From NCBI GenBank assembly GCA_964370865.1, contig CAYJKF010000001.1, forward strand, positions 35,703-99,702: a stretch of 64,000 bases of DNA. The letters run 5' to 3'. The stretch's first letter is position 1. Each line of letters starts with the position of its first letter. The position numbers were made by a program, and so were the translations under genes. The notes beneath the pieces are model-generated. The model did not search any database. It was not told the DNA's origin and saw only the letters and a list, made by a program, of their open reading frames with translations. Positions 17,661 through 59,801 of the stretch are shown here, one piece after another. Origin of the DNA: an uncultured Candidatus Saccharibacteria bacterium. GTDB lineage: Bacteria > Patescibacteriota > WWE3 > 2-01-FULL-39-13.

Positions 17661-20600
17661 CTACGTTTTGTACCACAGCACACCAGATATGGTGAAAAGG
17701 CTTAGGATAAGCCAATATCCGATATACTGTAAATATTGCGGAACATATAATATTACATAAGAGGTCGATACTGGGACGAAAATCCATGAATTTGCCCAAT
17801 TATTGGCGACAAAATGCTCTGTAAATACTCGTCTACAAGTAAATGGCGTAGTAATGCCAAACCAGCATGAATCGGCCTCATATAAATTCCACCCGTCTTC
17901 GAACGATTGATTTAAAACTAATACAGCTTTTCCTGGTTTTGAGCTAGAACCTTCCACTTTATAACGAGTCTTTCCCGATTTAACAACATTTGTAATTGCA
18001 TAGGAGTTATCTACATATTTGTGCTCTTTTGTCATTATCGTTAATCCTTTAATAAAGCTATATGGAATTGGTGTAAAAGTGAGATCAGATAGAATGTTTT
18101 CAGAAGGAACTTTGCCAATTGAGTGATTACTAATCCTAAGGTTTAATGGCTCGACGTCGTTATAAGGCGGAACAACTATCGCGTGCGTTCCTGTTAATAG
18201 TCTTTCGGTAAATAAGCATTTTTGAATTCTCTCGGAGTATAAGCACACATCTAATCCCTTTCCAGAAATATTTTGATTAGTAATTTGTACAAGGGCTCCG
18301 GATGATAAGTCTACCTCGCTCAAATCCAAATTATCACAAGAGATTGCGTCGATAGCCCTATATCTAAAATTTCCAGTTATTGGATCTAGCTCTCGCGCAA
18401 ACTCTTCCTCATTATATAAATCACAATTTCTTGAATCTGAATTAAAATCATACAGATTAGGACGAAATACCTTAGAATATTTTTCTATTTCAGGAAAAGT
18501 AATCTTCACAGGAAACTGAGAATTATTAATTTGAATCGTGTAAGGTGACGTGTCGTGATTAGATCCAAAACCCGTACTACCTGTGGCTCGGTATTTTTTA
18601 ACTTCGATATTTTTATATTCCACATTTTGAGTTTCATTTTTGTCTGATGACTCGTTTATCAAAACTAACCTGTATTCACCTGTTTTGAAAACTTCCACAT
18701 AGTCTTCGTATGTTTTATATTTTTCACTCTTTGCAGGAGCGTTTTTATATTTTTCATTTGCGCACTCTCCAGTGACTACATTCTCAATACAATAAATTGC
18801 CTTACCCCCAGAAGTAGTCATGTATTCAAAATGAGTGCTTACAATATCACCTCGGGTCAAAGCAAAACCGTCGTCGAATTTCAAACAAATGTTACGATCA
18901 TAACTTGATAAAACAACACTTCCAGGATATTTACCAATTGATTTTCCAAATGATCCATCCCCACCAAAACAATCCGTTGGTTCGGCAGACGCAACAGAAT
19001 TACTAAATGGATATTCGGCAACTGGCGTCTCATTATAGAACACAAAATTTGGATATGAATTAGAGGTCAGAATAATAGTTTCTTTTTCTCTGAGTTTCTT
19101 TCCATTGATTACAACTCCAATACCAGATGGAACTGAGGTAGAAGTTTTTTTAGTCTGGCCATCTCCATATAATCGTAAATCTTGCCCAGAGGAATCAGTT
19201 ATTACAGGAATCACATCCTCTAAAGTCAAAACGCCTTGAAACAGGTTAACTTTAAGTGGCCACCTACCAAAATCATTAAATCCAAATTGTATCTGCAAAT
19301 TTTCGCCTATAAAATTTTCGTTATATGGAATCTCGAGCGAATTTTCGTTTACGAGTTTAATACTGCTATCATCGGCAAATGGGTATTCAATATCGATTTC
19401 ACTTAATTTCGAATCTAAAGAATATAAATGGGCAACGTTTGAATTTTTATAATACACAGGATCAACTTGGCTATCTTTATATGATTCCCCTGTAATCAAA
19501 TATTTTTGCGGTGCATAAATATCATTACTTACTTCTGAATTTAGATTATTTTCATATTGCCTAGTTGGATATTTTTTAACATATGTATATACACTTAGGT
19601 TATCTTTTTCTGTTAATAAAACGAATTCGAAATCTTCGCTTACCAACTCTTTCATTTTTTGACTATTTACCGAGTTAGGAGAACCAGGAGATATTACAGA
19701 ATCATCAAACATTATTTCAGTTACTCCATATTTCTCAAAAACGAATTTTATTTGTTCGATATTATTTGTGTAGTAAGCATATTGATATTCGTTGTAGAAA
19801 TCCTCGTTTGTTGGAAACCACCTATCAAATTCTCTATCCAGTACAGGATTTTTAGATAAAAACCAAATAAATCCTGCGCCTTGATAAGACGCGTCAACCT
19901 CGTTATCTCTAATCCAGTCATAATATACCCATCCAAAAATGCTATTTGGTGGAGCAGTCGCTACTCTTCTTCCCTCTTCTTTATTTAGTTCATCAAATAC
20001 TTGAAAATATGAATCTGGAATTTTAACTTTAACAATATCGCCAATCAAAAATCCTCTGAATGCTGGGATAAAATAATACGTAAGCAAAATAACTGGGATA
20101 ATTTTTAATATTAGATTGATTTTATCAATCTTGATTTTTTCAAGAAAGTTTAAGAAGAAAAACCCAACAAAAACTGAAAGGCTTAGCATTAGTGGAATCG
20201 AAAACTTCGTATATGGAAACCTTAATGCCTCTTTAATAAGTGGCAACCTATTTTGCATGAAGCCAAACAGAAAACCGAGTGGTGGAGATGTCATTAATAA
20301 GAAAAATACAGAAAGAAAGATAATCGGTAGAAAATATTTAACCTGACTATTAGATGATTTTTTTAGAGAGGTGAAAATAATTCCACCAATGGATAAAGCA
20401 AAAAACAGATATCCGATAACAATCGCGAAAGTCCTAAAATAAAATGCATTCCATTCGACAAAGATACTGTTGAAACTTTCATTTCCAACATGTACTTTCC
20501 AGTTGAATAGATAACCTTTAAGTACCGCTATATTTTGTATGTTCGCGTACTCTAGATTATTCAATATTCCCTCATCACTAACTAGGCTTGTAATCTTAGC

Positions 20601-21380
20601 GTTAGCTACCTCGTCGGCATGATTTGCGGTGAAATATAAAGTCGGTAAAAGCCAATATGAATTTAGTATTAAGGTCGTGACGATTAAAACTGTTACTCTT
20701 TTTAAGCGACTTTGTTTGTTGATTCCTTTTTCAAGAAGAAAAAACATTAGTGCAAAAACCGAAAGCATCATAAAATTTACAAACCAAAGCGTTGGAGTGT
20801 GAGACATCGGCATGGAAAAGAAAGTTACGACAGTATATAAAAGAAAAGTTTTAGGTGACGGATTTTTTAGAAAAAGTAATGCTGTTAAAAATATCCATCC
20901 TATAAAACCGTATAAAGTTGCAAACATTTCAAGTGGAGCAAAAAATGTTTGTAATGTTCCTAGATTTAATAGATAGAACAATCCGCCTATAAAAGCAGCA
21001 TATTTGTAATTATTTTTTCCCTTAAATAAATGGGTTAGCAAATAATAAATCCCGAGTGGTCCAATAATTAGCATTGTGAAAAAATATGCCCATCTTAAAA
21101 AATGTGTTGGAAAGAATATATCGAGTGCCTGCATGTAAAGTACCCTTGGAATTTCTGATGCGTGTGCTTGAGTCGCGACTGCTCCAAGTCCCTGGTGATC
21201 CTGCCATACACTTTGCAAAACTCGTTCCCAATAAATAGAGAAATTCATTTCGGGGTGCAGAGTATCCCAGCCGCTAAGCCATGTTCCTGTCTTATAATTT
21301 GCAATACATAATACAATCGCAAAGCTAGCTAAAAGGAGAGGAAAGAAAATCTTAGGCAGTTCAATTTTCATTCTATTCAA
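17661..21380 (-). CDS. Very large polytopic membrane protein (about 500-aa multi-TM N-terminal domain plus about 700-aa extracytoplasmic domain), putative glycosyltransferase/envelope biogenesis protein
   Basis: A 1239-aa ORF with many predicted TM helices in the first approximately 520 residues and a large soluble domain after them. It overlaps the upstream GT-C-like gene by 8 nt. Confidence 0.5.
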   Translation of the reverse strand: MNRMKIELPKIFFPLLLASFAIVLCIANYKTGTWLSGWDTLHPEMNFSIYWERVLQSVWQDHQGLGAVATQAHASEIPRVLYMQALDIFFPTHFLRWAYFFTMLIIGPLGIYYLLTHLFKGKNNYKYAAFIGGLFYLLNLGTLQTFFAPLEMFATLYGFIGWIFLTALLFLKNPSPKTFLLYTVVTFFSMPMSHTPTLWFVNFMMLSVFALMFFLLEKGINKQSRLKRVTVLIVTTLILNSYWLLPTLYFTANHADEVANAKITSLVSDEGILNNLEYANIQNIAVLKGYLFNWKVHVGNESFNSIFVEWNAFYFRTFAIVIGYLFFALSIGGIIFTSLKKSSNSQVKYFLPIIFLSVFFLLMTSPPLGFLFGFMQNRLPLIKEALRFPYTKFSIPLMLSLSVFVGFFFLNFLEKIKIDKINLILKIIPVILLTYYFIPAFRGFLIGDIVKVKIPDSYFQVFDELNKEEGRRVATAPPNSIFGWVYYDWIRDNEVDASYQGAGFIWFLSKNPVLDREFDRWFPTNEDFYNEYQYAYYTNNIEQIKFVFEKYGVTEIMFDDSVISPGSPNSVNSQKMKELVSEDFEFVLLTEKDNLSVYTYVKKYPTRQYENNLNSEVSNDIYAPQKYLITGESYKDSQVDPVYYKNSNVAHLYSLDSKLSEIDIEYPFADDSSIKLVNENSLEIPYNENFIGENLQIQFGFNDFGRWPLKVNLFQGVLTLEDVIPVITDSSGQDLRLYGDGQTKKTSTSVPSGIGVVINGKKLREKETIILTSNSYPNFVFYNETPVAEYPFSNSVASAEPTDCFGGDGSFGKSIGKYPGSVVLSSYDRNICLKFDDGFALTRGDIVSTHFEYMTTSGGKAIYCIENVVTGECANEKYKNAPAKSEKYKTYEDYVEVFKTGEYRLVLINESSDKNETQNVEYKNIEVKKYRATGSTGFGSNHDTSPYTIQINNSQFPVKITFPEIEKYSKVFRPNLYDFNSDSRNCDLYNEEEFARELDPITGNFRYRAIDAISCDNLDLSEVDLSSGALVQITNQNISGKGLDVCLYSERIQKCLFTERLLTGTHAIVVPPYNDVEPLNLRISNHSIGKVPSENILSDLTFTPIPYSFIKGLTIMTKEHKYVDNSYAITNVVKSGKTRYKVEGSSSKPGKAVLVLNQSFEDGWNLYEADSCWFGITTPFTCRRVFTEHFVANNWANSWIFVPVSTSYVILYVPQYLQYIGYWLILSLFTISGVLWYKT

Positions 21381-23704: not shown

Positions 23705-24754
23705 TTAGTCTTCGATGAAGACCTCGCTGACAGTTCTGCTGCCGTTGTCGCTCTCGCGTGTTTTCCACTCAGCGAGTGTTTCGACTGACGGTCGACTTTC
23801 GAACGCGCAAGCGTACATGTGTGCCGTTCCCTCGGAACTATATCCAAGACCTTCGATCTGGACGTTCTGCCCCGGTTGGACAAGCAAGAGAACACGATCT
23901 CCGTACTGAACTTGATTCACACGTGCGGGATCCATCCCTGCCAAGACCCACAGGTCACTGTTGACGACCACCATGTCAGCTTGCGGATTATCGTATCCCA
24001 CAAGGAATGATGTGTCGTCTGGAACACATGTGACTACTGGTACTTCTTCGGTAACTTCAACTGCCGTATCTGCAGGCACCTCGACCGGGATGGTCTCGAT
24101 GACTGTTGAGGTTGTCGCCGCTGTTGCGGTGACGACGGTTGTTGCCACTGTGGCGAGGGCCACGACGGCGCCGGTGCGATGATCCACGACATCCACAACA
24201 TACGATACATTGTCTGACTGTGCCTGACGACGTTGCTCGATTGTGACCGGCGAAAGCATGTTGCTGCATTCGGGATAGGCATTAACGCTACCTGATGGCG
24301 ACAGAAGAGTCACCACGCGATAGGCACCTGGCCCCAAAAGCAGAACAGCAGACTTGCCACTCGACAGAGTAGCTCCGGTTAGCAGATCGTACAAAGTGTA
24401 AGGATCGGTCGTGACGATGCACTCATATGACTGTGGAACAACCATCGTGCCATCGCCGAGAGCCCAACCTGGCATGATTTGGTTTTGACCAAGAGTCGGA
24501 TATGCCGGACTTTTTGGCTCAACCGAAACCAAGACGATAGGAACTGCAGGGACTTCTGCGATGAGGAGAGTATTAGTCTCAACCTCGGACGCCTCAACAA
24601 CAGGCTCACCCTCGACCGGGATGGTCTCGGACTTGACTGTCGTGGCACTGTCACTGGTCGTAACTTGGGCTGGGGCCGAAGCCGGAGCCGGTGTCGCGCA
24701 TGCTGACAGAACCAACAAAACAACAAACAAACTACCTACAAGAAACTTGTTCAT
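23705..24754 (-). CDS. Secreted lipoprotein, hypothetical (GC-rich gene)
   Basis: A signal peptide with a lipobox (LVLSAC). The mature part is rich in V, T, A, P and E. The signal-peptide codons are AT-rich, but the mature part uses GC-ending codons (gtc, acc, ccg, atc). Confidence 0.6.
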   Translation of the reverse strand: MNKFLVGSLFVVLLVLSACATPAPASAPAQVTTSDSATTVKSETIPVEGEPVVEASEVETNTLLIAEVPAVPIVLVSVEPKSPAYPTLGQNQIMPGWALGDGTMVVPQSYECIVTTDPYTLYDLLTGATLSSGKSAVLLLGPGAYRVVTLLSPSGSVNAYPECSNMLSPVTIEQRRQAQSDNVSYVVDVVDHRTGAVVALATVATTVVTATAATTSTVIETIPVEVPADTAVEVTEEVPVVTCVPDDTSFLVGYDNPQADMVVVNSDLWVLAGMDPARVNQVQYGDRVLLLVQPGQNVQIEGLGYSSEGTAHMYACAFESRPSVETLAEWKTRESDNGSRTVSEVFIED

Positions 24755-25850: not shown

Positions 25851-26900
25851 CTAGCGGGCGACGAAGGCGAGGTGAATCTTGTATGGAGAGAAGAAAAACT
25901 TCTGGAAATACATCCGTAGAGGCGACCGATCAGGGTCAAAAACGAGTTCGATTGTCTCAAACTCATACTCAACCACTACTAGGTCAACATCTTGGAAATT
26001 CTTCCAGAACTTTCCATCCACGTATACGTTGACCGACTCGACTTTGCAGCCAAAATTCAACTGTAAGTTGTTTCCATCCATTGTCCACAAGAAATTCGTG
26101 GGATGAGGTGTACTACAACTTGTAGGCGGTGGGGTGACACTGGGTGTCGGGAACACAACGAGTGTTGCAGTTGGCGATGGCGACGGTGTTGAGGTGGGAG
26201 CTGGTTCAATAGACCCAAATAGTTCTTCCCAAGTCAAATAGACCTTGGAATTTTGACCATCTGGATCAATCGCGAGCTCCATATCAACCACAAAATCCGA
26301 TTTGTTCACACGAACGACACCACCAGCCTCACTTCGGACAAATTCACCATCAAGATACAGATTTGCAATTTTGTTGCAGTCCCATCTGATGATGACTTCA
26401 TCCTCTACCACTTCCCATAATGAAAGACATACAACGGGAACCTCGGTTTCCGTTGGTGTTACCGTCATGGTAGAGACTGCTGTTGGTGAAATTGTTGGGT
26501 TGGGTGTCACCGGAACTAGATCCAGAAACAAGTAAACCTGATTGTCAGTCTCGTCTGTCTCAACAATCAAATTGTCTGGATCGAGCACGACTTCCAAACT
26601 TGTTTCTGGGCATCCCCGCACCAACAAAATCTCCGTTGGCGAAACCTCATTTCGACCAATATTTGTGTAATGGTCGAATTCCCCATCAACGTAGATATGA
26701 ACGATGATAGTGGCCTCTATCAATTCTGGGTTCTGAACTGCAAATTCCAAAATGACGAAGCACTGATCATCATGCGAAACAATATTAAACGTCCCGACTG
26801 AAATATTCGGAAGAGTCTCCGCCCGAACAACCGACACGGTCAAGCCTATAACCATAACAAGCGCCATGGCGACCAAGAACAAACTACACATCTTCTTCAT
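25851..26900 (-). CDS. Secreted protein with three internal approximately 100-aa repeats joined by Pro/Thr-rich linkers, hypothetical
   Basis: A signal peptide. The motifs HIYVDGEFDH, LYLDGEFVRSE and NVYVDGKFWKN recur, each followed by a DPD motif. PT-rich linkers separate the repeats. Confidence 0.6.
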   Translation of the reverse strand: MKKMCSLFLVAMALVMVIGLTVSVVRAETLPNISVGTFNIVSHDDQCFVILEFAVQNPELIEATIIVHIYVDGEFDHYTNIGRNEVSPTEILLVRGCPETSLEVVLDPDNLIVETDETDNQVYLFLDLVPVTPNPTISPTAVSTMTVTPTETEVPVVCLSLWEVVEDEVIIRWDCNKIANLYLDGEFVRSEAGGVVRVNKSDFVVDMELAIDPDGQNSKVYLTWEELFGSIEPAPTSTPSPSPTATLVVFPTPSVTPPPTSCSTPHPTNFLWTMDGNNLQLNFGCKVESVNVYVDGKFWKNFQDVDLVVVEYEFETIELVFDPDRSPLRMYFQKFFFSPYKIHLAFVAR

Positions 26901-31947: not shown

Positions 31948-32442
31948 ATGAATCAAATACCGACAAATGTGGGTACCACACTTACAAAAAGGATAGTCGA
32001 AGCTCTAAATATAGCCTCTGTACCATATACAATCTCAACTCACGAACCTGTTAGAACCAGCGCCGAGGCAGCTTTGGTACGTGGATCCAACGAAGCAGAA
32101 GGAGCAAAAGCATTAATCTTTCGGGCAGACGGAAAACCAATACAAATTGTTCTTCAAGGAACTCGAAAGGTCGATAAGGACAAATTCAAGGCAAATTACA
32201 ATATTAATAAGCTCAAAATGGTCTCGGCTGAAGAAGTTTTAGAAATAAGTGGGGTTGAACCTGGAGGCGTTCCTCCTTTTGGTAATTTATTTGAGCCGGA
32301 AATTCCTGTATATTGTGATGATAATCTATTAAAATTAGATGACATTGAATTTAATGCGGGAGATAGGAGTGTAAGCATCCGCATGAAATCCCATGATTGG
32401 CAAAAGGTAGTAAATCCTGTCCTAGGAAATTTCACAGAATGA
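31948..32442 (+). CDS. YbaK/ProX-type aminoacyl-tRNA deacylase
   Basis: Similarity to the YbaK editing domain, including conserved GxxGGVPPFG. Confidence 0.7.
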   Translation: MNQIPTNVGTTLTKRIVEALNIASVPYTISTHEPVRTSAEAALVRGSNEAEGAKALIFRADGKPIQIVLQGTRKVDKDKFKANYNINKLKMVSAEEVLEISGVEPGGVPPFGNLFEPEIPVYCDDNLLKLDDIEFNAGDRSVSIRMKSHDWQKVVNPVLGNFTE

Positions 32443-33482
32443 AACCAACCCAAAATAGAAAGCTAAAAAAGAAACAAGACTCACATAAAGCCACGTACGA
32501 GGCTCCAAAAAACCACTCCATTTTTACGAGTATCCTATTAATACTATGTTTTCTAGCAGTATTATCAGGAGGAGCCGTGTTTTATTCCAGATACCCAAAT
32601 GGCATTGAACCACGTAAATCCGATGTAATGGTCGAACCGGCGACAACCAGCGCAGTATTATCCGCAAAGTCTCAAAAAGAACTTGTAACAGAAAATATAA
32701 CTACCAAAACTGATGCACCACAGATAACGGCTAAATCATATGGAATTTACTACCGAAAGAAAAATACTCCAAATGAATATGTAAAAATCGTAGAACGTGA
32801 GCCACAACAGATTTTGCCAATGGCCTCATTGACAAAGTTAATGACGGCATTAGTAGCATTAGAAAAATATCCGCTCGATAAAGAAATTACTATACCAGCA
32901 GTTTGCACAACCATAGTCGATGGAAGTAATGTTGGATTAAAAGCCGGCGAAATTTTTACCTTACAAGATCTACTGTTTGGCTTATTAGTAAAATCAGGAG
33001 CCGACGCTGGATGCACAATTGCAAACATAGAAAACCAGGAACAATTTATGAAGGAAATGAACGAAAAAGCTTCCTCCCTTGGAATGAAAGATACAAAATT
33101 TCAAAACGCAATTGGATTTGATTCAGGAACGACTCACGTTTCAACAATTAACGACCTTAAAATTCTATCAGAAGAAGTTTTGAAATCTAACGTACTTCGA
33201 AAAATCATAAGTACTCAAATTATTGAAATATCTCCTGAAAATTCGGCGAATGTTTATAGATTCAGTACAACAAATGATTTACTAAAATCGATCCCTGGTA
33301 CAGTTGGAATTAAAACCGGGTTTACTGAACTTGCAAAAGAATGCCTATCGTATCTTTACGAAGACAATCATTATGAAATCATGATTATATTATTGGGATC
33401 AGAAAAAAGATTTGAAGACACCAAGTCACTATTAGATTGGGCTAAAAAAGAAATAGAAAATAGTCAGACTCCTAATCCCTAA
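32439..33482 (+). CDS. D-alanyl-D-alanine carboxypeptidase (serine-type, PBP5/DacA-like)
   Basis: The active-site SxxK (ASLTKLMT), an N-terminal TM segment, and an ATGA start/stop overlap with the ybaK-like gene. Confidence 0.75.
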   Translation: MKPTQNRKLKKKQDSHKATYEAPKNHSIFTSILLILCFLAVLSGGAVFYSRYPNGIEPRKSDVMVEPATTSAVLSAKSQKELVTENITTKTDAPQITAKSYGIYYRKKNTPNEYVKIVEREPQQILPMASLTKLMTALVALEKYPLDKEITIPAVCTTIVDGSNVGLKAGEIFTLQDLLFGLLVKSGADAGCTIANIENQEQFMKEMNEKASSLGMKDTKFQNAIGFDSGTTHVSTINDLKILSEEVLKSNVLRKIISTQIIEISPENSANVYRFSTTNDLLKSIPGTVGIKTGFTELAKECLSYLYEDNHYEIMIILLGSEKRFEDTKSLLDWAKKEIENSQTPNP

Positions 33483-40578: not shown

Positions 40579-41811
40579 CTACCTTGCGGTAGGGACGAGG
40601 GGTGATTCAGCGGTGCCCGCAAGGCTTGTTTGCCCTGGGCAAAGTGACAGCTGGAAAGCTCTCCCGACGATGAGGACATCTCCTCGAACTATGTCGTCAT
40701 AGCGAACTTTTAGGACCCAATTGTCTCCCCACCTCGTGATACCTGGTTCAACCGGAATGCCGTTCAAGAACACCTCTTGAATGAAGAATACATTCTCCTG
40801 GTTGAACTGAACAATATGGACCTGAATGAGATCTCCACCATTAGTGAGGTCAAATAGGCCCTCGCCATGCAAAGACCACTCTGGTCCTTCTACTTCTTCC
40901 TGCCAGGAAGTCTCAACTGCAGACGTCGTGATGACGCTGACGTAGGGATCTCCCGAACCACGGACGAGGTAACATTTCTCGCCATCATCAGGCTCCGGAG
41001 TTGATGTTGCCTCGACGTTGGGCATTGGTGTTGGAATTTCCGTAGGTTGTTCTGTGGGAACTTCCGTTGGTTGTTCTGTAGGAACTTCCGTTGGTTGTTC
41101 TGTGGGAACTTCCGTTGGTTGTTCTGTAGGAACTTCCGTTGGCTGTTCTGTAGGAACTTCCGTTGGCTGTTCTGTGGGAACTTTCGTTGGTTGTTCTGTA
41201 GGAACTTCCGTTGGCTGTTCTGTGGGAACTACCGTTGGCTCGTCTGTTGGGACTGCCGTTGGTTCGTCTGTTGGGACTACCGTTGGCTCGTCTGTCGGGA
41301 CTGCTGTTGGCTCGTCTGTTGGGACTGCCGTTGGTTCGTCCGTCGGGACTGCCGTTGGTTCGTCCGTCGGGACTGCCGTTGGCTCGTCTGTTGGGACTAC
41401 CGTTGGCTCGTCTGTTGGGACTACCGTTGGCTCGTCGTCTGTTGGGACTGCCGTTGGTTCGTCTGTTGGGACTTCTGTACACTCTGGTGTGGGAACTTGA
41501 GTAGGAACCTCTGTCGGCTTCGGGGTTTTTGTGGGTTTATCACCACCACACCAACCTTCGTTACCATCGGCTCTATCTTCATCGTTACCACATCCATTAT
41601 TATCGTGTGGCTTTCCCTCCCCAGGATCAGGTGTGCCTTGATCTCGATCTGGCCCATGACCATCATTGTCTGGCTCGTTGAAACCTCGGGTCGGCTCCGG
41701 CAAAGGAGAATCCTTCGATCCATTTGCACTCACCACACGAGGAAGCATTATCATTGTGCCAAGCAAGGCCACAATAATAATTACACTGAATACCGCAAAC
41801 AACTTGCGCAT
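40579..41811 (-). CDS. Secreted protein with a long (PTDEPTAV)n/(PTEQPTEV)n Pro/Thr-rich tandem-repeat region (cassette copy 2; GC-rich)
   Basis: A signal peptide, an acidic Gly/Asp-rich N-terminal region, about 20 eight-residue repeats and a C-terminal globular part. It has the same flanking leader and 3' repeat elements as copy 1. Confidence 0.65.
   Translation of the reverse strand: MRKLFAVFSVIIIVALLGTMIMLPRVVSANGSKDSPLPEPTRGFNEPDNDGHGPDRDQGTPDPGEGKPHDNNGCGNDEDRADGNEGWCGGDKPTKTPKPTEVPTQVPTPECTEVPTDEPTAVPTDDEPTVVPTDEPTVVPTDEPTAVPTDEPTAVPTDEPTAVPTDEPTAVPTDEPTVVPTDEPTAVPTDEPTVVPTEQPTEVPTEQPTKVPTEQPTEVPTEQPTEVPTEQPTEVPTEQPTEVPTEQPTEVPTEQPTEIPTPMPNVEATSTPEPDDGEKCYLVRGSGDPYVSVITTSAVETSWQEEVEGPEWSLHGEGLFDLTNGGDLIQVHIVQFNQENVFFIQEVFLNGIPVEPGITRWGDNWVLKVRYDDIVRGDVLIVGRAFQLSLCPGQTSLAGTAESPLVPTAR
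41018..41500. repeat. 24-bp coding tandem-repeat array (about 20 units, two subfamilies) inside gene 40579-41811
   Basis: Units such as ggaacttccgttggttgttctgtg and ggactgccgttggttcgtctgtt repeat head to tail. They translate on the minus strand to VPTEQPTE and VPTDEPTA. Confidence 0.85.
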
Positions 41812-54044: not shown

Positions 54045-54845
54045 TTACTTAACAAGTTTTCCTATAACTGATAGCCGATATTTCGTAGTTCCTGGTGGCA
54101 CGCAAGTAAATAATTCAACCGTACTCTCGTGTTTACCAAGTGTATTGGGATAAGGGTTTCCTAACGGGTCAACTTCCTCTGGATCCTGAATCTTAGAGAA
54201 ATCCACAATGTATCTATATTCTTTACCTTTATATTTGATAGTAAACTCGTCTCCATAATCTAAATCCTCTAATTTTGAGAAAATTGCCGTATAATCCCCT
54301 TCTTTATAATGATTCTTGAAATATGAATAAGTAGAATGACCATAAATGAATGAATTACAACCTTCACCTGGTAAACAGCTACCTTTGAAGTGTCCTATTG
54401 AATCCTGTGGGTCCATTGTGCCCGAATCTATCTCGACCAACGCATCTACTATATCTAGCTTGGGTATTGTTAAATAGAAATAACTGTGCGGTACATCATA
54501 ATTAGTAGTTTCTGCATCACTTTCGTCCTTTGTTAGAATTGGGATATTCGAATTATCATCATATGAAGTTAACTCCTTGTGCTTTTTGGCCTGGGATTCT
54601 AATTCGTTAAATGTAAACCCATTCGATGAGGCTTGGTTTGGAAGTACGCTTAAAGTAACTTTTTGAAGTGGATTAATAATTGGATCTTTTTGCTCTTCGT
54701 AGGCATAACTAACAAAAACTGGAATAATTACATTTTGAGATAATAAATAAAGTCCTGTTAGGAATAAGGCTAGCGCCAGAGTCGACCTTACGATTTTTAG
54801 CAAAACGTGTTCCTTTTTTTGTATAGATTCCTGTGAAATATTCAT
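54045..54845 (-). CDS. Sortase-family transpeptidase
   Basis: An N-terminal TM anchor, conserved His (YGHSTY), the catalytic TLxTC-like ELFTC motif and a downstream Arg. Confidence 0.65.
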   Translation of the reverse strand: MNISQESIQKKEHVLLKIVRSTLALALFLTGLYLLSQNVIIPVFVSYAYEEQKDPIINPLQKVTLSVLPNQASSNGFTFNELESQAKKHKELTSYDDNSNIPILTKDESDAETTNYDVPHSYFYLTIPKLDIVDALVEIDSGTMDPQDSIGHFKGSCLPGEGCNSFIYGHSTYSYFKNHYKEGDYTAIFSKLEDLDYGDEFTIKYKGKEYRYIVDFSKIQDPEEVDPLGNPYPNTLGKHESTVELFTCVPPGTTKYRLSVIGKLVK

Positions 54846-54903
54846 AAGTATAACCCATGGCTATACTAGTCCTATAGTAGAGCTGGGCAGCGCTATTTTA
54901 ATG

Positions 54904-55590
54904 CTAAAATGAGTATATCATAAAATCTTGGATCATCTGTAATTTAGACTTATAAGAATTAGATTTCATGTCAAATTCTAGTTTATAAATGTCCAAAAGG
55001 ATATTTTTTAGCTGGGCAATTTCTAATTTTGAATTTTGTAATTTACTTTTAAAAAACGGACTTATTTTTTTTGAGGTTTCATTTTTTGATTTTATGGATA
55101 AAATATTTCTGACATAAGTTTGCGCTAGACTGGCAAACATAAAAACAGCTGCCTCGTCTTCATCAATATTTAACAGTTTAGTAATCGCGGACTTTTTATC
55201 ATTACGAATAAATAAACAGTCACATATATCAAATGATTGTGAATCGAATTTTTCATCAAATTTAATGAGTTCTACGACTTTTGGTAATGTTTTTGCAGTG
55301 GCAGCCTCTAATTTATAGCTAAGTACGAAATAAAGATTTGTATTTTTAACAATTGGTTCGATTTGTTTTATAAAATCGACTACTTTAGATTTATCGGCTG
55401 GCTCAACTTTAATGATTACTAGTTTATCTCTATCATCAAATAATGAATTTGCGCTAAGTAAATCTTTGATATCTAATTCAGTTTTTATTAAACCCTGAAA
55501 TTCATATACTAAGCTTTTATCAAATTTATTCTTAACATTTGAAATATATTCCTGGATTTTTACTTTATCGTCTCCCGATATTATTTGCAT
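54904..55590 (-). CDS. Hypothetical protein, possibly a short DNA polymerase III delta subunit (HolA-like)
   Basis: Weak resemblance to the N-terminal HolA domain. The length (228 aa) is short. Confidence 0.3.
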   Translation of the reverse strand: MQIISGDDKVKIQEYISNVKNKFDKSLVYEFQGLIKTELDIKDLLSANSLFDDRDKLVIIKVEPADKSKVVDFIKQIEPIVKNTNLYFVLSYKLEAATAKTLPKVVELIKFDEKFDSQSFDICDCLFIRNDKKSAITKLLNIDEDEAAVFMFASLAQTYVRNILSIKSKNETSKKISPFFKSKLQNSKLEIAQLKNILLDIYKLEFDMKSNSYKSKLQMIQDFMIYSF

Positions 55591-56663
55591 TCGGCTTGTG
55601 AGTCGTCACAAAAAAGGTAAGATCTGACTAAGGTTTTAATAGCTTCATATGTCCTCCCTGTAGGAACTAAAACATATTTCCCACTATAAAATTGTTCACG
55701 TTCTTCTTCGGTAGGTGATTCTAACATTCCAGAGCCTAAAACATTTGGATTTTTTAATTCGTTAGATAAAACTATTTTCTTTACATTAAGATTCTCAGTT
55801 GAACTTACCATGTCATAAAAATATAAAATCTCTGAAAGACTAATATCAGTTTCGACATTTTGCTTGTAGGCTTCATATAGTTCTGCGATTTTGCCAGGGT
55901 TAAGTAAGGTTTCGGAAGAAAGAATTTCGTCTTTTAATGCGACTAAAACTTTTTGTTGGCGTCTGGCCCTGGCAAAATCGCCAGCCTCATTAAAATTTTC
56001 TGAATGCCTAGATCTAGCATACTGAAGTGCCTTCTCACCATCCATGGTCTGGATACCCTTTTCAAATCTGACTGTCATATATCTTGCACTTTCAGGTATA
56101 GCATTCTCCATTCCCTCTACTGGATATAAATGGTCAACAAAAGCTTCTTCGACTTCAATGTCTAATCCTCCAACTGCGGTTATTGCATCTTTGAAGGCAC
56201 TAAATCCTACCAATGCTGTGTAATGAATAGGAATTCCTACTATTTCCTCAACTTTTTCCTGAACTTTTTTTACATCCCTACCCCTTCCTTCATAAGGAAA
56301 ATAATTCCATGCATACAACGCATTAATTTTCTCATCAATCTCATCGACCCATAAATCACGAGGAATTGAGACCATTACTGTATTTGAATTATTGTCCCCA
56401 ATTGATAGAACCATAATTGTGTCCGTAAGAACTCCACCCTGTGTACTGCCTGGTGATCTTTGATCTAAACCTAGAACTAGAATATTGGTCCTACCATCTG
56501 TGGATTTGATATCTTGCGCGGTAAAGACCTTCGAAACAACTGAAACGGGCTTAAATAGTGCAGCCGCAAGGCCTCCATTCTTGAAGAATAAAATTGATAC
56601 TATTATCGAAACTATAAATATTAATAGAAAAAAATATTTTAAGACCGGTCCTAATTTGAACAT
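55581..56663 (-). CDS. LytR-CpsA-Psr (LCP) family cell-envelope glycopolymer transferase
   Basis: An N-terminal TM segment and the LCP block ILVLGLDQRS...TDTIMVLSI...VSIPRDLWV. Confidence 0.8.
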   Translation of the reverse strand: MFKLGPVLKYFFLLIFIVSIIVSILFFKNGGLAAALFKPVSVVSKVFTAQDIKSTDGRTNILVLGLDQRSPGSTQGGVLTDTIMVLSIGDNNSNTVMVSIPRDLWVDEIDEKINALYAWNYFPYEGRGRDVKKVQEKVEEIVGIPIHYTALVGFSAFKDAITAVGGLDIEVEEAFVDHLYPVEGMENAIPESARYMTVRFEKGIQTMDGEKALQYARSRHSENFNEAGDFARARRQQKVLVALKDEILSSETLLNPGKIAELYEAYKQNVETDISLSEILYFYDMVSSTENLNVKKIVLSNELKNPNVLGSGMLESPTEEEREQFYSGKYVLVPTGRTYEAIKTLVRSYLFCDDSQAECK

Positions 56664-57304
56664 TTAGAAATTATAGAACTAAATTCAATTGGATCCAATG
56701 CCGAAGTTCCTATCAAAAAGCCTGATATTATCGAATTATTTGTATATTGTTCAACATTTGCACTATTCACACTCCCACCATATATGAAGGACGATAGTCC
56801 TATTTGTTTTTGAACATCATAGATTGATTCCATTGATGCAGGATTTCCAGTACCAATTGATTCAAGTGGTTCATATGCGAAAAGTAATGTTGAAGATGCG
56901 ACATGGGATTTAGCCGAAGTAAATTCACCTAGATTTTTGAAACAAACAATTGGAATAAGGCCTGCTTTCAAAGATAAATCAATTTTGGCTAAGACCTCAT
57001 CATTGCTCTCACCCCTTGTGCGCGATTCAGAATGACCAATAATTACATATTTACAAAAGTCTTTTATTTGACTTGCTCCTACTAAACCAGTTTGGGCTCC
57101 GTTTTCAAACATTGATACATCTTGCCCAGCAATACTTACACCAAGTTCATCCGATAGACGACTTAACATATGTAAATATGGATTTGAAGGGGCAATCACC
57201 ACCTCGATATTGGGCGTTGCTTTATATTCATGACCAAAAGTATCAATCCAATTCTTAACCTCAGATATATTTTTATTTTGTTTCCAATTTGCAATGAAAA
57301 TCAT
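56651..57304 (-). CDS. tpiA: Triosephosphate isomerase
   Basis: Motifs NWK, IIGHSESR (the catalytic His/Glu region) and GGSV. Confidence 0.85.
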   Translation of the reverse strand: MIFIANWKQNKNISEVKNWIDTFGHEYKATPNIEVVIAPSNPYLHMLSRLSDELGVSIAGQDVSMFENGAQTGLVGASQIKDFCKYVIIGHSESRTRGESNDEVLAKIDLSLKAGLIPIVCFKNLGEFTSAKSHVASSTLLFAYEPLESIGTGNPASMESIYDVQKQIGLSSFIYGGSVNSANVEQYTNNSIISGFLIGTSALDPIEFSSIISKCSN

Positions 57305-58164
57305 TTGTTATCTTCTTCCATCTTACCCCTAATTCTTTCACGTGTTGCTGAAAAAATCTCGGGTAAATTCTCTAAATCGCTGTGAGTATAATCATATCCG
57401 ATCGTCGATAAACAGGCAAAAACAGTAGGTATTTGCTTATAAATTCTCGAAGCGTACCCACAGGATATCAAACTGCGAGGGAGGATTGCTACATTCAAAT
57501 CGTCTTCTCCCAAACTTGATAAGTCACATCCCATCGGACATCCCATGCAAGATGGATTATTTCTAGGTTCTACCGTTAATTCTCTATATAAATCGAGGAT
57601 ACTATTATATAGGTTTTCGTATTCGTATATATTCTTTAGGTCTACCGATAAACTTGAGTCGATTTTCAAACTAAGACTATTAATTTGATTTAATTTGGTC
57701 TCAGAGAAATCCCCAAATGAAAAATATCCAAGTGAGAAAACGCCGTGTTCATTTATTATCAAATCAGACTTGTATTTATCCGCTTCTGTTGTGGAAAGAG
57801 TAATTTCGTCTGGGAGTACAGTTAAATCAATAAATGGGGTCTTTTGTTCTCCAACTATAACAATTGCATCTAGGCCAGCATAATTCATTTTTGCGGCTAA
57901 AGTTCCTCCACCATACTTCTCTACGAACTTTCCATTTTCAATTGTTAATAGACATGATTTTGAAATATAAGGAAAATATCCCGATAAAGGTCCAGATGTA
58001 ATAACGATTGGCTTATCCTCGTAATATTCTTCTAATAATTTATAAGCTAGACTTACTCCTCCAATATACTCATACACATCACCAACTATTTTTATTTGAG
58101 CAACTTGCTCAGTTAAATCGAGATGGAGAATATTTTTGTAGTATTTTTCATTTGAAGAAATCAT
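57301..58164 (-). CDS. Stand-alone aldehyde:ferredoxin oxidoreductase N-terminal-domain-like protein (AFOR_N-like) with a Cys-rich tail
   Basis: The blocks ILHLDLTEQ..IGGVSLAYKLL, ITSGPLSG and KYGGGTLAAKMNYAGLDAIVIVGE follow the order and spacing of the AOR N-terminal domain. The C-terminus carries CMGCPMGC. Confidence 0.45.
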   Translation of the reverse strand: MISSNEKYYKNILHLDLTEQVAQIKIVGDVYEYIGGVSLAYKLLEEYYEDKPIVITSGPLSGYFPYISKSCLLTIENGKFVEKYGGGTLAAKMNYAGLDAIVIVGEQKTPFIDLTVLPDEITLSTTEADKYKSDLIINEHGVFSLGYFSFGDFSETKLNQINSLSLKIDSSLSVDLKNIYEYENLYNSILDLYRELTVEPRNNPSCMGCPMGCDLSSLGEDDLNVAILPRSLISCGYASRIYKQIPTVFACLSTIGYDYTHSDLENLPEIFSATRERIRGKMEEDNK

Positions 58165-58166
58165 TT

Positions 58167-58409
58167 TTAATCTCTCGCCTGTACAACTTCAAAGCAGTTT
58201 TGTGGACAGATTTTCACAATCTTTTCTGGAAACTTAATTTTAGAACCATAATCAATTTGAATTTTGTATCGACCAGGTCTCCCTTTTATAACAATCGAGG
58301 AATCTTTTATTCCCAGCTTTCGATTTTCATATACGGAATTTAATAAAGTACAAAGATTACAACCTATACACTTGTGCTCTCTTGGAGCAACTAAGAATTT
58401 ATCTGCCAT
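58167..58409 (-). CDS. 4Fe-4S ferredoxin
   Basis: CIGCNLC...CPQNC cluster motifs in an 80-aa protein. Confidence 0.7.
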   Translation of the reverse strand: MADKFLVAPREHKCIGCNLCTLLNSVYENRKLGIKDSSIVIKGRPGRYKIQIDYGSKIKFPEKIVKICPQNCFEVVQARD

Positions 58410-58411
58410 AT

Positions 58412-59416
58412 TTATTTACAATGATTCAGAAGATCAACAACCCTGTTTGAATAACCCCATTCATTATCGTACCAAGCCATTACTTTCACCATATTCCCAC
58501 TGACTACTCGAGTTAAGTCACCTGCAACTATTGAAGAATATTGAGTTTTAATTATATCGGTGGATACGAGCTGTTGAGTAGTGAAAGCTAATATGTTTTT
58601 ATATTCTTCTTTCCTAGATGCTTCTAAAAAAGCATTGTTAACTTCTTCTACTGTTACCTCTTTTGAAAGAATTGCCGTTACATCGGATATAGATCCGCAA
58701 ACTACAGGAACTCTAAGTGAAACTCCATCAAACTTATTTGCCATTACTGGAAGAGCCTTCGCGGTTGCTTCTGCGGCACCTGTTGAGGATGGAACGATAT
58801 TTTGAGCTGCTGCTCGGCCTCTTCTCATATCTTTAACTGTAGGTGAATCAACTAGGCTTTGTGTCGCTGTATAAGCATGAACGGTTGTCATCATCGATTT
58901 TTCTACACCGAATGAGTCATTTAAAACTTTTAATAATGGCGTTACGTTATTTGTTGTACACGATGCATTCGAAATCAAATTCGCGCTCATATCTGATAAA
59001 TCTGATGCGCCTAATACAATAGTTTTAAACCCATCATCTTTTGCAGGGGCAGTTAAGAGAACCTTCCTTGCGCCGGCTGTAATATGAGCTTGAGCGGATT
59101 CAGATTTTGTAAAAATCCCCGTTGACTCAATAACGACATCAACTCCTAATTCTTTCCAGGGTAATTGTAATGGGTCTTTTTGGGAATAGACGGTGTAATT
59201 TTTACCGCTAACTACCAAATGTGTATCATCAAATGACGTTGGCCTTTCATATCTACCGTAGACGGTGTCATATTTAAGTAAATATTCCAAAGTTTCAGGA
59301 GGAGTCAAATCATTTATAGCTACTACTTCAAAGTCGAATCCCTGATCAATTCTGTCCAATATTATTCTAAAAACGGCTCTGCCAATTCGACCAAATCCAT
59401 TAATGGCAATTTTCAT
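58412..59416 (-). CDS. gap: Glyceraldehyde-3-phosphate dehydrogenase
   Basis: An N-terminus INGFGRIGR and the catalytic SCTTN motif. Confidence 0.9.
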   Translation of the reverse strand: MKIAINGFGRIGRAVFRIILDRIDQGFDFEVVAINDLTPPETLEYLLKYDTVYGRYERPTSFDDTHLVVSGKNYTVYSQKDPLQLPWKELGVDVVIESTGIFTKSESAQAHITAGARKVLLTAPAKDDGFKTIVLGASDLSDMSANLISNASCTTNNVTPLLKVLNDSFGVEKSMMTTVHAYTATQSLVDSPTVKDMRRGRAAAQNIVPSSTGAAEATAKALPVMANKFDGVSLRVPVVCGSISDVTAILSKEVTVEEVNNAFLEASRKEEYKNILAFTTQQLVSTDIIKTQYSSIVAGDLTRVVSGNMVKVMAWYDNEWGYSNRVVDLLNHCK

Positions 59417-59688
59417 TGACTATGTCCTTCTAACCACTGTCTTAATACCGGCTCTACTAATAGACCGATTCGCCTATCAATTTCTTTGCCATCTTTCATG
59501 ATAACTAAGGTTGGAATACTCATCACACCAAATTGTTGTGATTTAGCTTGCTCAACGTCGACATTAACTTTTTCGACGGTGACCTTTTCGGCCATTTCTT
59601 TTGCTACTTTTTGTAAAATCGGATCCATGGCATGACAAGGGCCGCACCAGTCCGCATAGAAGTCTAAAACTGTAATCATACATACCAT
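59413..59688 (-). CDS. trxA: Thioredoxin
   Basis: The WCGPC active site in a 91-aa protein. Confidence 0.85.
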   Translation of the reverse strand: MVCMITVLDFYADWCGPCHAMDPILQKVAKEMAEKVTVEKVNVDVEQAKSQQFGVMSIPTLVIMKDGKEIDRRIGLLVEPVLRQWLEGHSQ

Positions 59689-59801
59689 TCTACTTGCCGA
59701 ACCTCAAAAATCAAATGCAATATTACTCTTAATAAGAAATATTTTAGAGATTTCTAATACGGTTGTTAAATAATTTTAATCGTGTTAGTAATAATAGATA
59801 T

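Follow-up and report, generated by a model that had tools for sequence, protein, structure and literature searches.

The window, a 64-kb stretch of contig CAYJKF010000001.1 from an uncultured WWE3 (Katanobacteria) bacterium with a tiny genome, to which all coordinates below refer, encodes on its minus strand two proteins between glyceraldehyde-3-phosphate dehydrogenase (GAPDH, gap) and triosephosphate isomerase (TIM, tpiA). One is a small Fe-S protein of 80 amino acids (aa), whose gene is here called fdx, and the other is a 287-aa protein of the aldehyde:ferredoxin oxidoreductase (AOR) family, here called the mini-AOR. Our analysis suggests that the pair is probably a miniaturized two-subunit AOR that works as a two-cluster electron-transfer or redox module, and not a glyceraldehyde-3-phosphate:ferredoxin oxidoreductase (GAPOR). 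The evidence comes from the homology to AOR, the loss of domains, the retention of the cluster cysteines, purifying selection, synteny, and the coexistence of the pair with the phosphoglycerate kinase (PGK) gene, pgk, in related genomes. The defining feature of AOR-family enzymes is a tungsto/molybdopterin site. What is found here is a lineage-wide, strongly selected AOR derivative without a pterin site, which yet keeps the N-domain, the [4Fe-4S] ligands, and a shrunken Fe-S partner.

Domain loss and retained cysteines in the mini-AOR

The mini-AOR (57301..58164, minus strand) matches the Pfam family AFOR_N with 54.8 bits (cut-off 29.8, E 1.3e-14) and contains [4Fe-4S]-binding elements, but no pterin-binding domains. 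The preliminary description had followed the N-terminal domain of AOR over about 200 residues; the homology holds above the cut-off, but the match spans only residues 11-112, corresponding to positions 2-116 of the 199 positions in the profile. No match to AFOR_C (PF01314) was obtained in the Pfam scan at E<=1. In AOR, domains 2 and 3, which are covered by AFOR_C, each carry a pterin-binding motif, DxxGL(C/D)x. An alignment with AORs of 538-605 aa (alignment A3) reveals where the residues have been lost. Part of the N-domain is absent, about 50 residues before the Cys motif are gone, about 190 residues between the Cys motif and Cys235 are deleted, including the GLDxxSxG pterin-binding block, and the last 45 or so residues at the C-terminal end are missing. 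From the domain carrying the second pterin motif, only a short segment around its cysteine is retained. Relative to these AORs, about 250 internal residues and about 45 C-terminal ones are absent. The total loss amounts to about 300 residues, including both of the tungsto/molybdopterin-binding domains, while the N-terminal β-sandwich domain and the four [4Fe-4S] cysteines are kept.

The motif CMGCPMGC (57526..57549, minus strand), recognized as a CxxCxxxC motif in the translation and in a HMMER alignment, had been placed at the end of the protein, but it represents residues 206-213 of 287 and is followed by 74 conserved residues. The longer string RNNPSCxGCPMGC aligns with residues 284-297 of the AOR from Pyrococcus furiosus (RNKP-CYACPIGC; 1aor), such that C206, C209, and C213 of the mini-AOR pair with Cys288, Cys291, and Cys295. 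We take these to be three of the four [4Fe-4S] ligands in the 1AOR structure, in agreement with the numbering printed in the alignment. The presumed fourth ligand is the invariant Cys235 in the segment LISCGYA (57451..57471, minus strand), which alignment A3 pairs with Cys494 of P. furiosus AOR. This distal cysteine is located exactly 19 residues before a conserved GW/GI/GY in P. furiosus AOR (C494/A513), in the long AOR-like protein P0203 (C462/A481), and in the window (C235/T254). All four cysteines are invariant across the family, and they are the only invariant cysteines in the mini-AOR, with no further redox-active Cys pair. There are 29 invariant residues in an alignment of 32 close relatives. 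Adding a sister clade of about 35% identity leaves all four cluster cysteines invariant, together with the main glycine motifs. The mini-AOR had been described as a truncated AOR-N module, but it has kept CxxCxxxC and a fourth, distal cysteine as well, and the alignments indicate an internally deleted AOR and not a simple N-terminal fragment.

The preliminary description had also raised the matter of the structure and of the pterin-binding residues. Both pterin-binding domains are gone, and the AlphaFold2 (AF2) models of the 287-aa and 80-aa proteins are both confident, but some residues of the pterin-phosphate face appear to remain. K69, which is invariant in the family, pairs with Arg76 of AOR, and a GGG loop at residues 85-87 pairs with Ser94-Gly96, as counted from the alignment. 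In AOR, these positions contact the pterin phosphates and Mg. The mini-AOR may have kept K69 and the GGG loop for structural reasons, or as a residual phosphate-binding site.

A role similar to that of ferredoxin:thioredoxin reductase (FTR), an idea that arose from the thioredoxin gene (trx) at the head of the operon, was rejected as a claim of family membership because there is neither an extra Cys pair nor an FTR-like motif. Nothing in the mini-AOR resembles CPC and CHC, which we take to be the motifs of FTR.

The 80-aa Fe-S protein

The protein encoded immediately upstream (58167..58409, minus strand) had been called a 4Fe-4S ferredoxin. It is indeed a [4Fe-4S]-type protein, and its matches to Fer4-type Pfam families are below the thresholds (16.4 bits against 35, and 15 against 21.1). 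The only cysteines that are invariant across both clades are C14, C17, C20, and C68, the last of which is followed by P69, which corresponds to one CxxCxxC...CP set and would provide enough ligands for a single [4Fe-4S] cluster. Bacterial-type ferredoxins (Fer4/Fer4_21) of the dicluster type have two CxxCxxCxxxCP motifs. In its small size and in this single set, the protein is similar to the single-cluster [4Fe-4S] ferredoxins of Pyrococcus and Thermotoga. The predicted fold is of the ferredoxin type, and the nearest solved folds are WOR5-S, the 9mqx_E subunit, AorA, and BamC, each about twice as long as the 80-aa protein and with 18-21% identity to it, while free ferredoxins score lower. Judged by the predicted fold, the protein appears to resemble the dedicated Fe-S small subunits of heteromeric AORs more than it resembles a free ferredoxin. 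Since the homologous small subunits are about twice its length, both partners of a two-subunit AOR seem to have been miniaturized together. The window protein is identical to QG570_226 at NCBI, from a Patescibacteria group bacterium, where it is encoded on a contig of 571 kb.

The solved heteromeric AORs provide the closest comparison for the pair: WOR5 of P. furiosus (6x6u/6x1o), AorAB(C) of Aromatoleum (8c0z), the electron-bifurcating W-AOR (9mqx), and BamBC of Geobacter (4z3w). As in these systems, the gene for the small Fe-S subunit adjoins that for the large subunit, here in 38 of 38 loci, and the [4Fe-4S] cysteines of the large subunit are conserved in register. However, the large subunit is 287 aa rather than about 600-650 aa and has no pterin domains and hence no W/Mo site, and the small subunit has 80 aa and one cluster motif rather than about 150-170 aa and three or four motifs. 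The identity of the mini-AOR to the solved large subunits is 17-18%. The pair is similar to the electron-transferring part of the WOR5, AorAB, and BamBC complexes.

Distribution and selection

A search of 5.8 billion proteins identified 34 clusters with 41-100% identity, all but two of which are 281-289 aa long. When 1.84 billion cluster representatives were searched exhaustively with a profile, about 34 full-length representatives of the family (270-302 aa, E<1e-30) were retrieved, where the count of about 34 refers to clusters at 50% identity; the next tier in this search consisted of AOR-like proteins of 538-590 aa. The carriers are genomes of candidate division WWE3, and metagenome-assembled genomes classified as unclassified Patescibacteria or “Saccharibacteria” with the same synteny. 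The gene is annotated publicly as “hypothetical protein” or “aldehyde:ferredoxin oxidoreductase”. The preliminary description had called the arrangement unusual, and it appears to be undescribed as far as the literature is searchable: the searchable literature yielded no paper that deals with AFOR_N-only proteins, or with AOR in bacteria of the candidate phyla radiation (CPR).

Substitution rates were computed against a locus with 93% identity (L007). The dN/dS ratio is 0.030 for the mini-AOR (dS 1.23) and 0 for the 80-aa gene (dS 0.42), as compared to 0.031 for gap (dS 0.89) and 0.019 for lytR (dS 0.99). Both genes of the pair are under strong purifying selection and are functional, not debris. 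This bears on the idea, also put forward in the preliminary description, that the pair is a remnant. The two open reading frames (ORFs) would then be the functionless debris of a broken AOR operon, or an annotation artefact. The massive domain loss relative to AOR and the weak Fer4 matches of the small ORF are what such decay might look like. However, the mini-AOR evolves under a constraint like that on GAPDH, the ratios of 0.030 and 0 were obtained at dS values of 0.4-1.2, the approximately 34 clusters at 50% identity are of near-constant length, and the 29 residues invariant in 32 sequences include cysteines and glycine motifs that are invariant in the sister clade too. In addition, the junctions look translationally coupled and both AF2 models are confident. 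Selection and conservation effectively refute decay, to which we assign next to no probability.

The dN/dS ratio of tpiA against the same locus is 0.126 (dS 0.55), about four times that of its neighbors.

Synteny and history of the pair

To describe the gene order in related genomes, we used 38 distinct mini-AOR genes, drawn from collections of genomes, metagenomes, and assemblies. In all of them, fdx is located directly upstream and tpiA directly downstream of the mini-AOR gene, so the gene order recurs in relatives, and the fdx-miniAOR-tpiA arrangement is conserved far beyond chance. The gene preceding the pair differs. It is gap in 19 of the 38 loci, which belong to the window's clade and to a subgroup of the sister clade, and pgk in 18. 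The usual order of the latter type is trx-gap-pgk-fdx-miniAOR-tpiA-lytR-holA-sortase, on contigs of up to 864 kb. In the canonical gap-pgk-tpiA operon, pgk is placed between gap and tpiA, where the window has none, and it had been suggested that the pair has replaced it. This is contradicted by the 18 loci in which pgk is found directly upstream of the same pair. The two have coexisted, and the pair is no substitute for phosphoglycerate kinase. Since the order without pgk occurs in two separate mini-AOR clades, pgk has been lost from this position on at least two occasions.

By profile score, the full-length proteins nearest to the mini-AOR are long AOR-like proteins of 538-554 aa (E 1e-26 to 1e-22). 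An fdx-AOR-lytR context is present in all three for which it was looked up, namely pgk-fdx79-AOR538-lytR-holA (P0193, L039:1135-2751), gap-...-fdx78-AOR550-lytR-holA-sortase (P0196, L040:6001-7653), and fdx-AOR554-lytR (P0203, L122:95-1759). The alignment of P0203 with residues 11-356 of P. furiosus AOR (8e-36) contains the motifs GRGGxG, EYES, and GLD. The long WWE3-type AORs (P0193, P0198, and P0203, as well as P0196 and P0197, which lack the cysteines) have the same neighbors as the mini-AOR, being preceded by a gene for an Fe-S protein of 78-79 aa and followed by lytR-holA, and those with cysteines also share CxxCPxGC and (L/M)IGCGY with it. They differ from the mini-AOR in that they keep AFOR_C (domains 2 and 3), and in that there is no tpiA between the AOR gene and lytR. 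Since tpiA is absent from the long-form strings, it is the glycolytic genes that move in and out, while fdx-AOR-lytR is constant. The long WWE3-type AORs are themselves uncharacterized.

The mini form most likely arose in place from an AOR of about 540 aa, since related contigs have an AOR of 538-554 aa at this position. The WWE3 ancestor would have contained a normal-looking two-subunit AOR, with a large subunit of about 540 aa, between pgk and tpiA. The large subunit would then have been cut down where it stood, and later, in the window's clade, pgk would have left the operon, such that the pair came to abut gap.

The long AOR-like subfamily with both AFOR_N and AFOR_C, which also includes P0197, P0198, P0208, and P0218, is found on WWE3-like contigs with 43-50% GC. 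The 78-aa partner in L040 retains its cysteines although P0196 has lost them.

The upstream border of the operon also differs. In the pgk-containing WWE3 clade, the genes adjoining trx-gap on the upstream side are Peptidase_S11 and uvrD. This place is occupied by recA-recX-rny-HU in the window's clade, where Peptidase_S11 (32397-33482, plus strand) is about 26 kb away. These different neighbors in the two clades indicate that a rearrangement at the upstream border accompanies the loss of pgk from the string. The gap-pgk spacer in the pgk-containing clade is variable, from 5 bp to 2.4 kb, and sometimes contains a small ORF on the opposite strand (for example L018:2305-4690, and between gap and pgk in L029, L032, and L035), unlike the pgk-fdx-miniAOR-tpiA junctions, which are tight. 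Breaks seem to recur at the boundary between gap and pgk.

Phosphoglycerate kinase and the suggested GAPOR-like bypass

PGK is absent from the 64-kb window, as judged from a tblastn search with a PGK query and Pfam scans of all ORFs of at least 120 aa, and neither pgk nor a remnant of it is present in the window between gap and the 80-aa gene. Nor was PGK found with tblastn and Pfam in the 6-10-kb flanks of 17 loci from the window's clade. A profile based on five WWE3 PGKs retrieved 7997 PGKs, and none of the best 120 was tied to a contig of the window's clade. Five of those on long contigs were looked up and all five occur in the pgk-fdx-miniAOR context; no PGK locus with neighbors like those of the window's clade was found among the metagenome matches listed. 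We infer that pgk is located elsewhere in this genome, because GAPDH is the phosphorylating enzyme and makes little sense without PGK, because tpiA is likewise displaced in the long-form loci, and because TIM, GAPDH, and PGK have been reported to be essentially universal across about 1000 CPR genomes (PMC7304191).

The absence of pgk from the string had led to the suggestion of a bypass of the kind known from archaeal GAPOR, in which the pair would oxidize glyceraldehyde-3-phosphate (G3P) or act on 1,3-bisphosphoglycerate in a ferredoxin-linked reaction and replace PGK where it is missing from the operon. The pair is placed within a glycolytic operon at every mini-AOR locus and most likely derives from a full-size AOR that was encoded in the same place. 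The window contains no pgk, no WWE3-type PGK is tied to any contig of the window's clade among the matches listed, and K69 and the GGG loop align with positions that contact the pterin phosphates in AOR. Like archaeal GAPOR (NF040818), the mini-AOR belongs to the AOR family and is linked to glycolysis and to a partner of the ferredoxin type. However, GAPOR is a full-length protein of about 650 aa with a tungstopterin, and the mini-AOR has lost both pterin-binding domains. It shows no match to the NCBIfam model GAPOR_Arch at E<=1, and even the relatives of 538-605 aa score only 26-44 bits against the curated cut-off of 1300 bits. Furthermore, all four cluster cysteines are present, which leaves no iron site free for Lewis-acid chemistry. 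GAPOR bypasses both GAPDH and PGK, but the pair coexists with both in many genomes, including pgk in the 18 loci above, and the GAPDH in the window is a normal phosphorylating type I enzyme that needs PGK downstream. PGK, GAPDH, and TIM are reported to be nearly universal in CPR bacteria (PMC7304191). We consider such a bypass very unlikely. By its sequence, the mini-AOR would rather be classified as a domain-deleted variant of the AOR family that is neither an AOR nor a GAPOR, as it fails to match AFOR_C and the GAPOR model and has no pterin-binding domains.

The PGKs of WWE3 are short, 315-345 aa as compared to 387-400 aa for a typical bacterial PGK (P0035-P0083), and keep the principal conserved motifs RxDLDVP, GHxGRP, LLENLRF, and GGGDT. 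They are encoded at L018-L020, L024, L025, and L029-L038, for example at L019:4675-5712. The TIM in the window (217 aa) stays below the cut-offs of the bacterial NCBIfam equivalogs that it matches; some TIMs from Katanobacteria cluster with archaeal sequences (Jaffe et al. 2020, PMC7304191).

Proposed function of the pair

The reading we favor is that the 80-aa and 287-aa genes represent a vertically inherited, miniaturized two-subunit enzyme of the AOR family, of the WOR5-L/S, AorAB, or BamBC type. The large subunit would have lost about 300 residues and both pterin domains and retained the N-domain with the four cluster cysteines, and the small subunit would have been halved, with a single cluster motif remaining where three or four are usual. 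The two proteins are predicted to form a heterodimer, as the full-size homologs do, with two [4Fe-4S] clusters within electron-transfer distance, and this heterodimer may serve as a low-potential electron carrier or as a redox-sensing module. Oxidation of aldehydes or G3P is unlikely, because the W/Mo-pterin site is lost. An electron-transfer role fits the electron carriers of the WWE3 genome RAAC2, for which a pyruvate:ferredoxin oxidoreductase and a group 3b-like hydrogenase are listed (Kantor et al. 2013, PMC3812714). A “ferredoxin oxidoreductase-like protein”, which may or may not be the mini-AOR, is also among these carriers (PMC3812714).

Several observations weigh against this reading. 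None of the matches listed places pgk at another site in a genome of the window's clade. The long relatives P0196, P0197, and P0218 contain neither the CxxCxxxC motif nor the distal cysteine, which shows that the lineage tolerates non-redox versions of the fold. The retained residues on the pterin-phosphate face (K69 and GGG 85-87) may mean that the protein binds a phosphorylated ligand, with catalytic or sensing chemistry. The confidence of the AF2 model of the mini-AOR is lowest at residues 200-220 (pLDDT 65), around the Cys motif. Finally, the heterodimer is suggested by gene adjacency and fold matches, the binding of clusters is predicted from the sequence, and the electron donor and acceptor of the pair are hypothetical.

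Alternatively, the pair may be a non-catalytic regulator, scaffold, or redox sensor that binds GAPDH, PGK, TIM, or thioredoxin and modulates them through the redox state or integrity of its clusters. In that case it would not pass electrons from one metabolic enzyme to another. Its persistent linkage with trx, gap, and tpiA is consistent with such a role, the mini-AOR has no obvious active site left in alignment A3, and the maintenance of the cysteine-less P0196 at the same position suggests a role that is not strictly dependent on electron transfer. On the other hand, the eight cluster cysteines, four in each protein, are invariant in the mini forms. The linkage to lytR, holA, and sortase is equally tight, which makes the operon context a weak guide in compact genomes, and an interaction of the pair with glycolytic enzymes or thioredoxin is hypothetical. 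A role as a regulator or scaffold connected with trx and gap has to be taken seriously as a rival, albeit a rather unlikely one. The pair may also be a novel ferredoxin-linked partner of GAPDH, as proposed in the preliminary description. A bolder possibility is that the pair is a pterin-independent, ferredoxin-linked triose-phosphate enzyme or sensor, which would hold a phosphorylated C3 intermediate on the K69/GGG face of the N-domain and take over or re-route the step from G3P to 3-phosphoglycerate where the operon has lost pgk. We regard this as a long shot; if true, it would reveal both a minimal redox enzyme of a new kind and a novel form of lower glycolysis in CPR bacteria.

If the pair is a miniaturized electron-transfer or redox module, as we favor, an AOR scaffold without its cofactor has a selectable function, probably in electron transfer or redox sensing, which bears on how metalloenzymes are dismantled in reduced genomes. 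The family also provides a natural deletion ladder for dissecting the fold, from about 600 aa via about 540 aa, with or without cysteines, to about 285 aa. The current annotations could lead metabolic reconstructions to assign AOR or GAPOR activity to Katanobacteria wrongly, or to overlook a key electron carrier. The picture of glycolysis is unchanged on the present evidence.

Gene string and other features of the window

The order of genes on the minus strand is trx, gap, the 80-aa Fe-S gene, the 287-aa AOR-like gene, tpiA, lytR, a holA-like gene, and sortase, as derived from the ORFs in the window. The reported order gap-ferredoxin-AOR-like-tpiA, with no pgk in between, is confirmed by the ORFs, the family matches, and the tight junctions. 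The segment 57301-59416 given for it contains gap and the genes for the 80-aa and 287-aa proteins, but tpiA (56651-57304) is located just beyond.

The string is headed by trx (59413..59688, minus strand), which encodes a 91-aa thioredoxin with the motif WCGPC (PF00085, 1.5e-22) and is found upstream of gap in most related loci. The gap gene (58412..59416, minus strand) encodes a type I phosphorylating GAPDH of 334 aa that matches TIGR01534 with 396.7 bits (cut-off 367.2) as well as Gp_dh_N and Gp_dh_C, and the motifs SCTTN, TVHAYT, and RRGRAA are readable in its translation. Downstream of the pair, tpiA (56651..57304, minus strand) encodes a short-form TIM of 217 aa (PF00121, 7.8e-45). It is followed by a co-directional block (54045..56663) consisting of lytR (lytR_cpsA_psr, 55581-56663), the holA-like gene (54904-55590), and sortase (54045-54845), all identified with Pfam on the minus strand. 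The comparison of loci shows that this block is kept near the pair in both the mini-AOR and long-AOR lineages.

The stop codon of trx overlaps the start codon of gap in an ATGA, and the same applies to the stop of the mini-AOR gene and the start of tpiA. The spacers between gap and fdx and between fdx and the mini-AOR gene are 2-6 nt, with 2 nt from the stop of gap to the start of the 80-aa gene, and the junctions look translationally coupled. A scan identified no minus-strand terminator-like site inside the string. A promoter-like site, TTAACA-17-TAAAAT, is located 5' of trx (59741..59769, minus strand) and is a candidate operon promoter only, as promoter-like and terminator-like sites in the window are no commoner than in shuffled sequence. 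No tRNA, tmRNA, or Rfam family was found at threshold in the whole window with the Rfam and tRNA scans.

Elsewhere in the window, an ORF of 1239 aa (17661-21380, minus strand) and two ORFs of 349 aa (23705-24754 and 25851-26900, both minus strand) have no Pfam match. The two 349-aa ORFs, which comparison ruled out as paralogs, are located in a stretch with 41-45% GC (23.7-26.9 kb) in a genome of about 35% GC. A second GC-rich patch (40-42 kb) is accounted for by a 410-aa protein that consists largely of PT repeats (40579-41811, minus strand).

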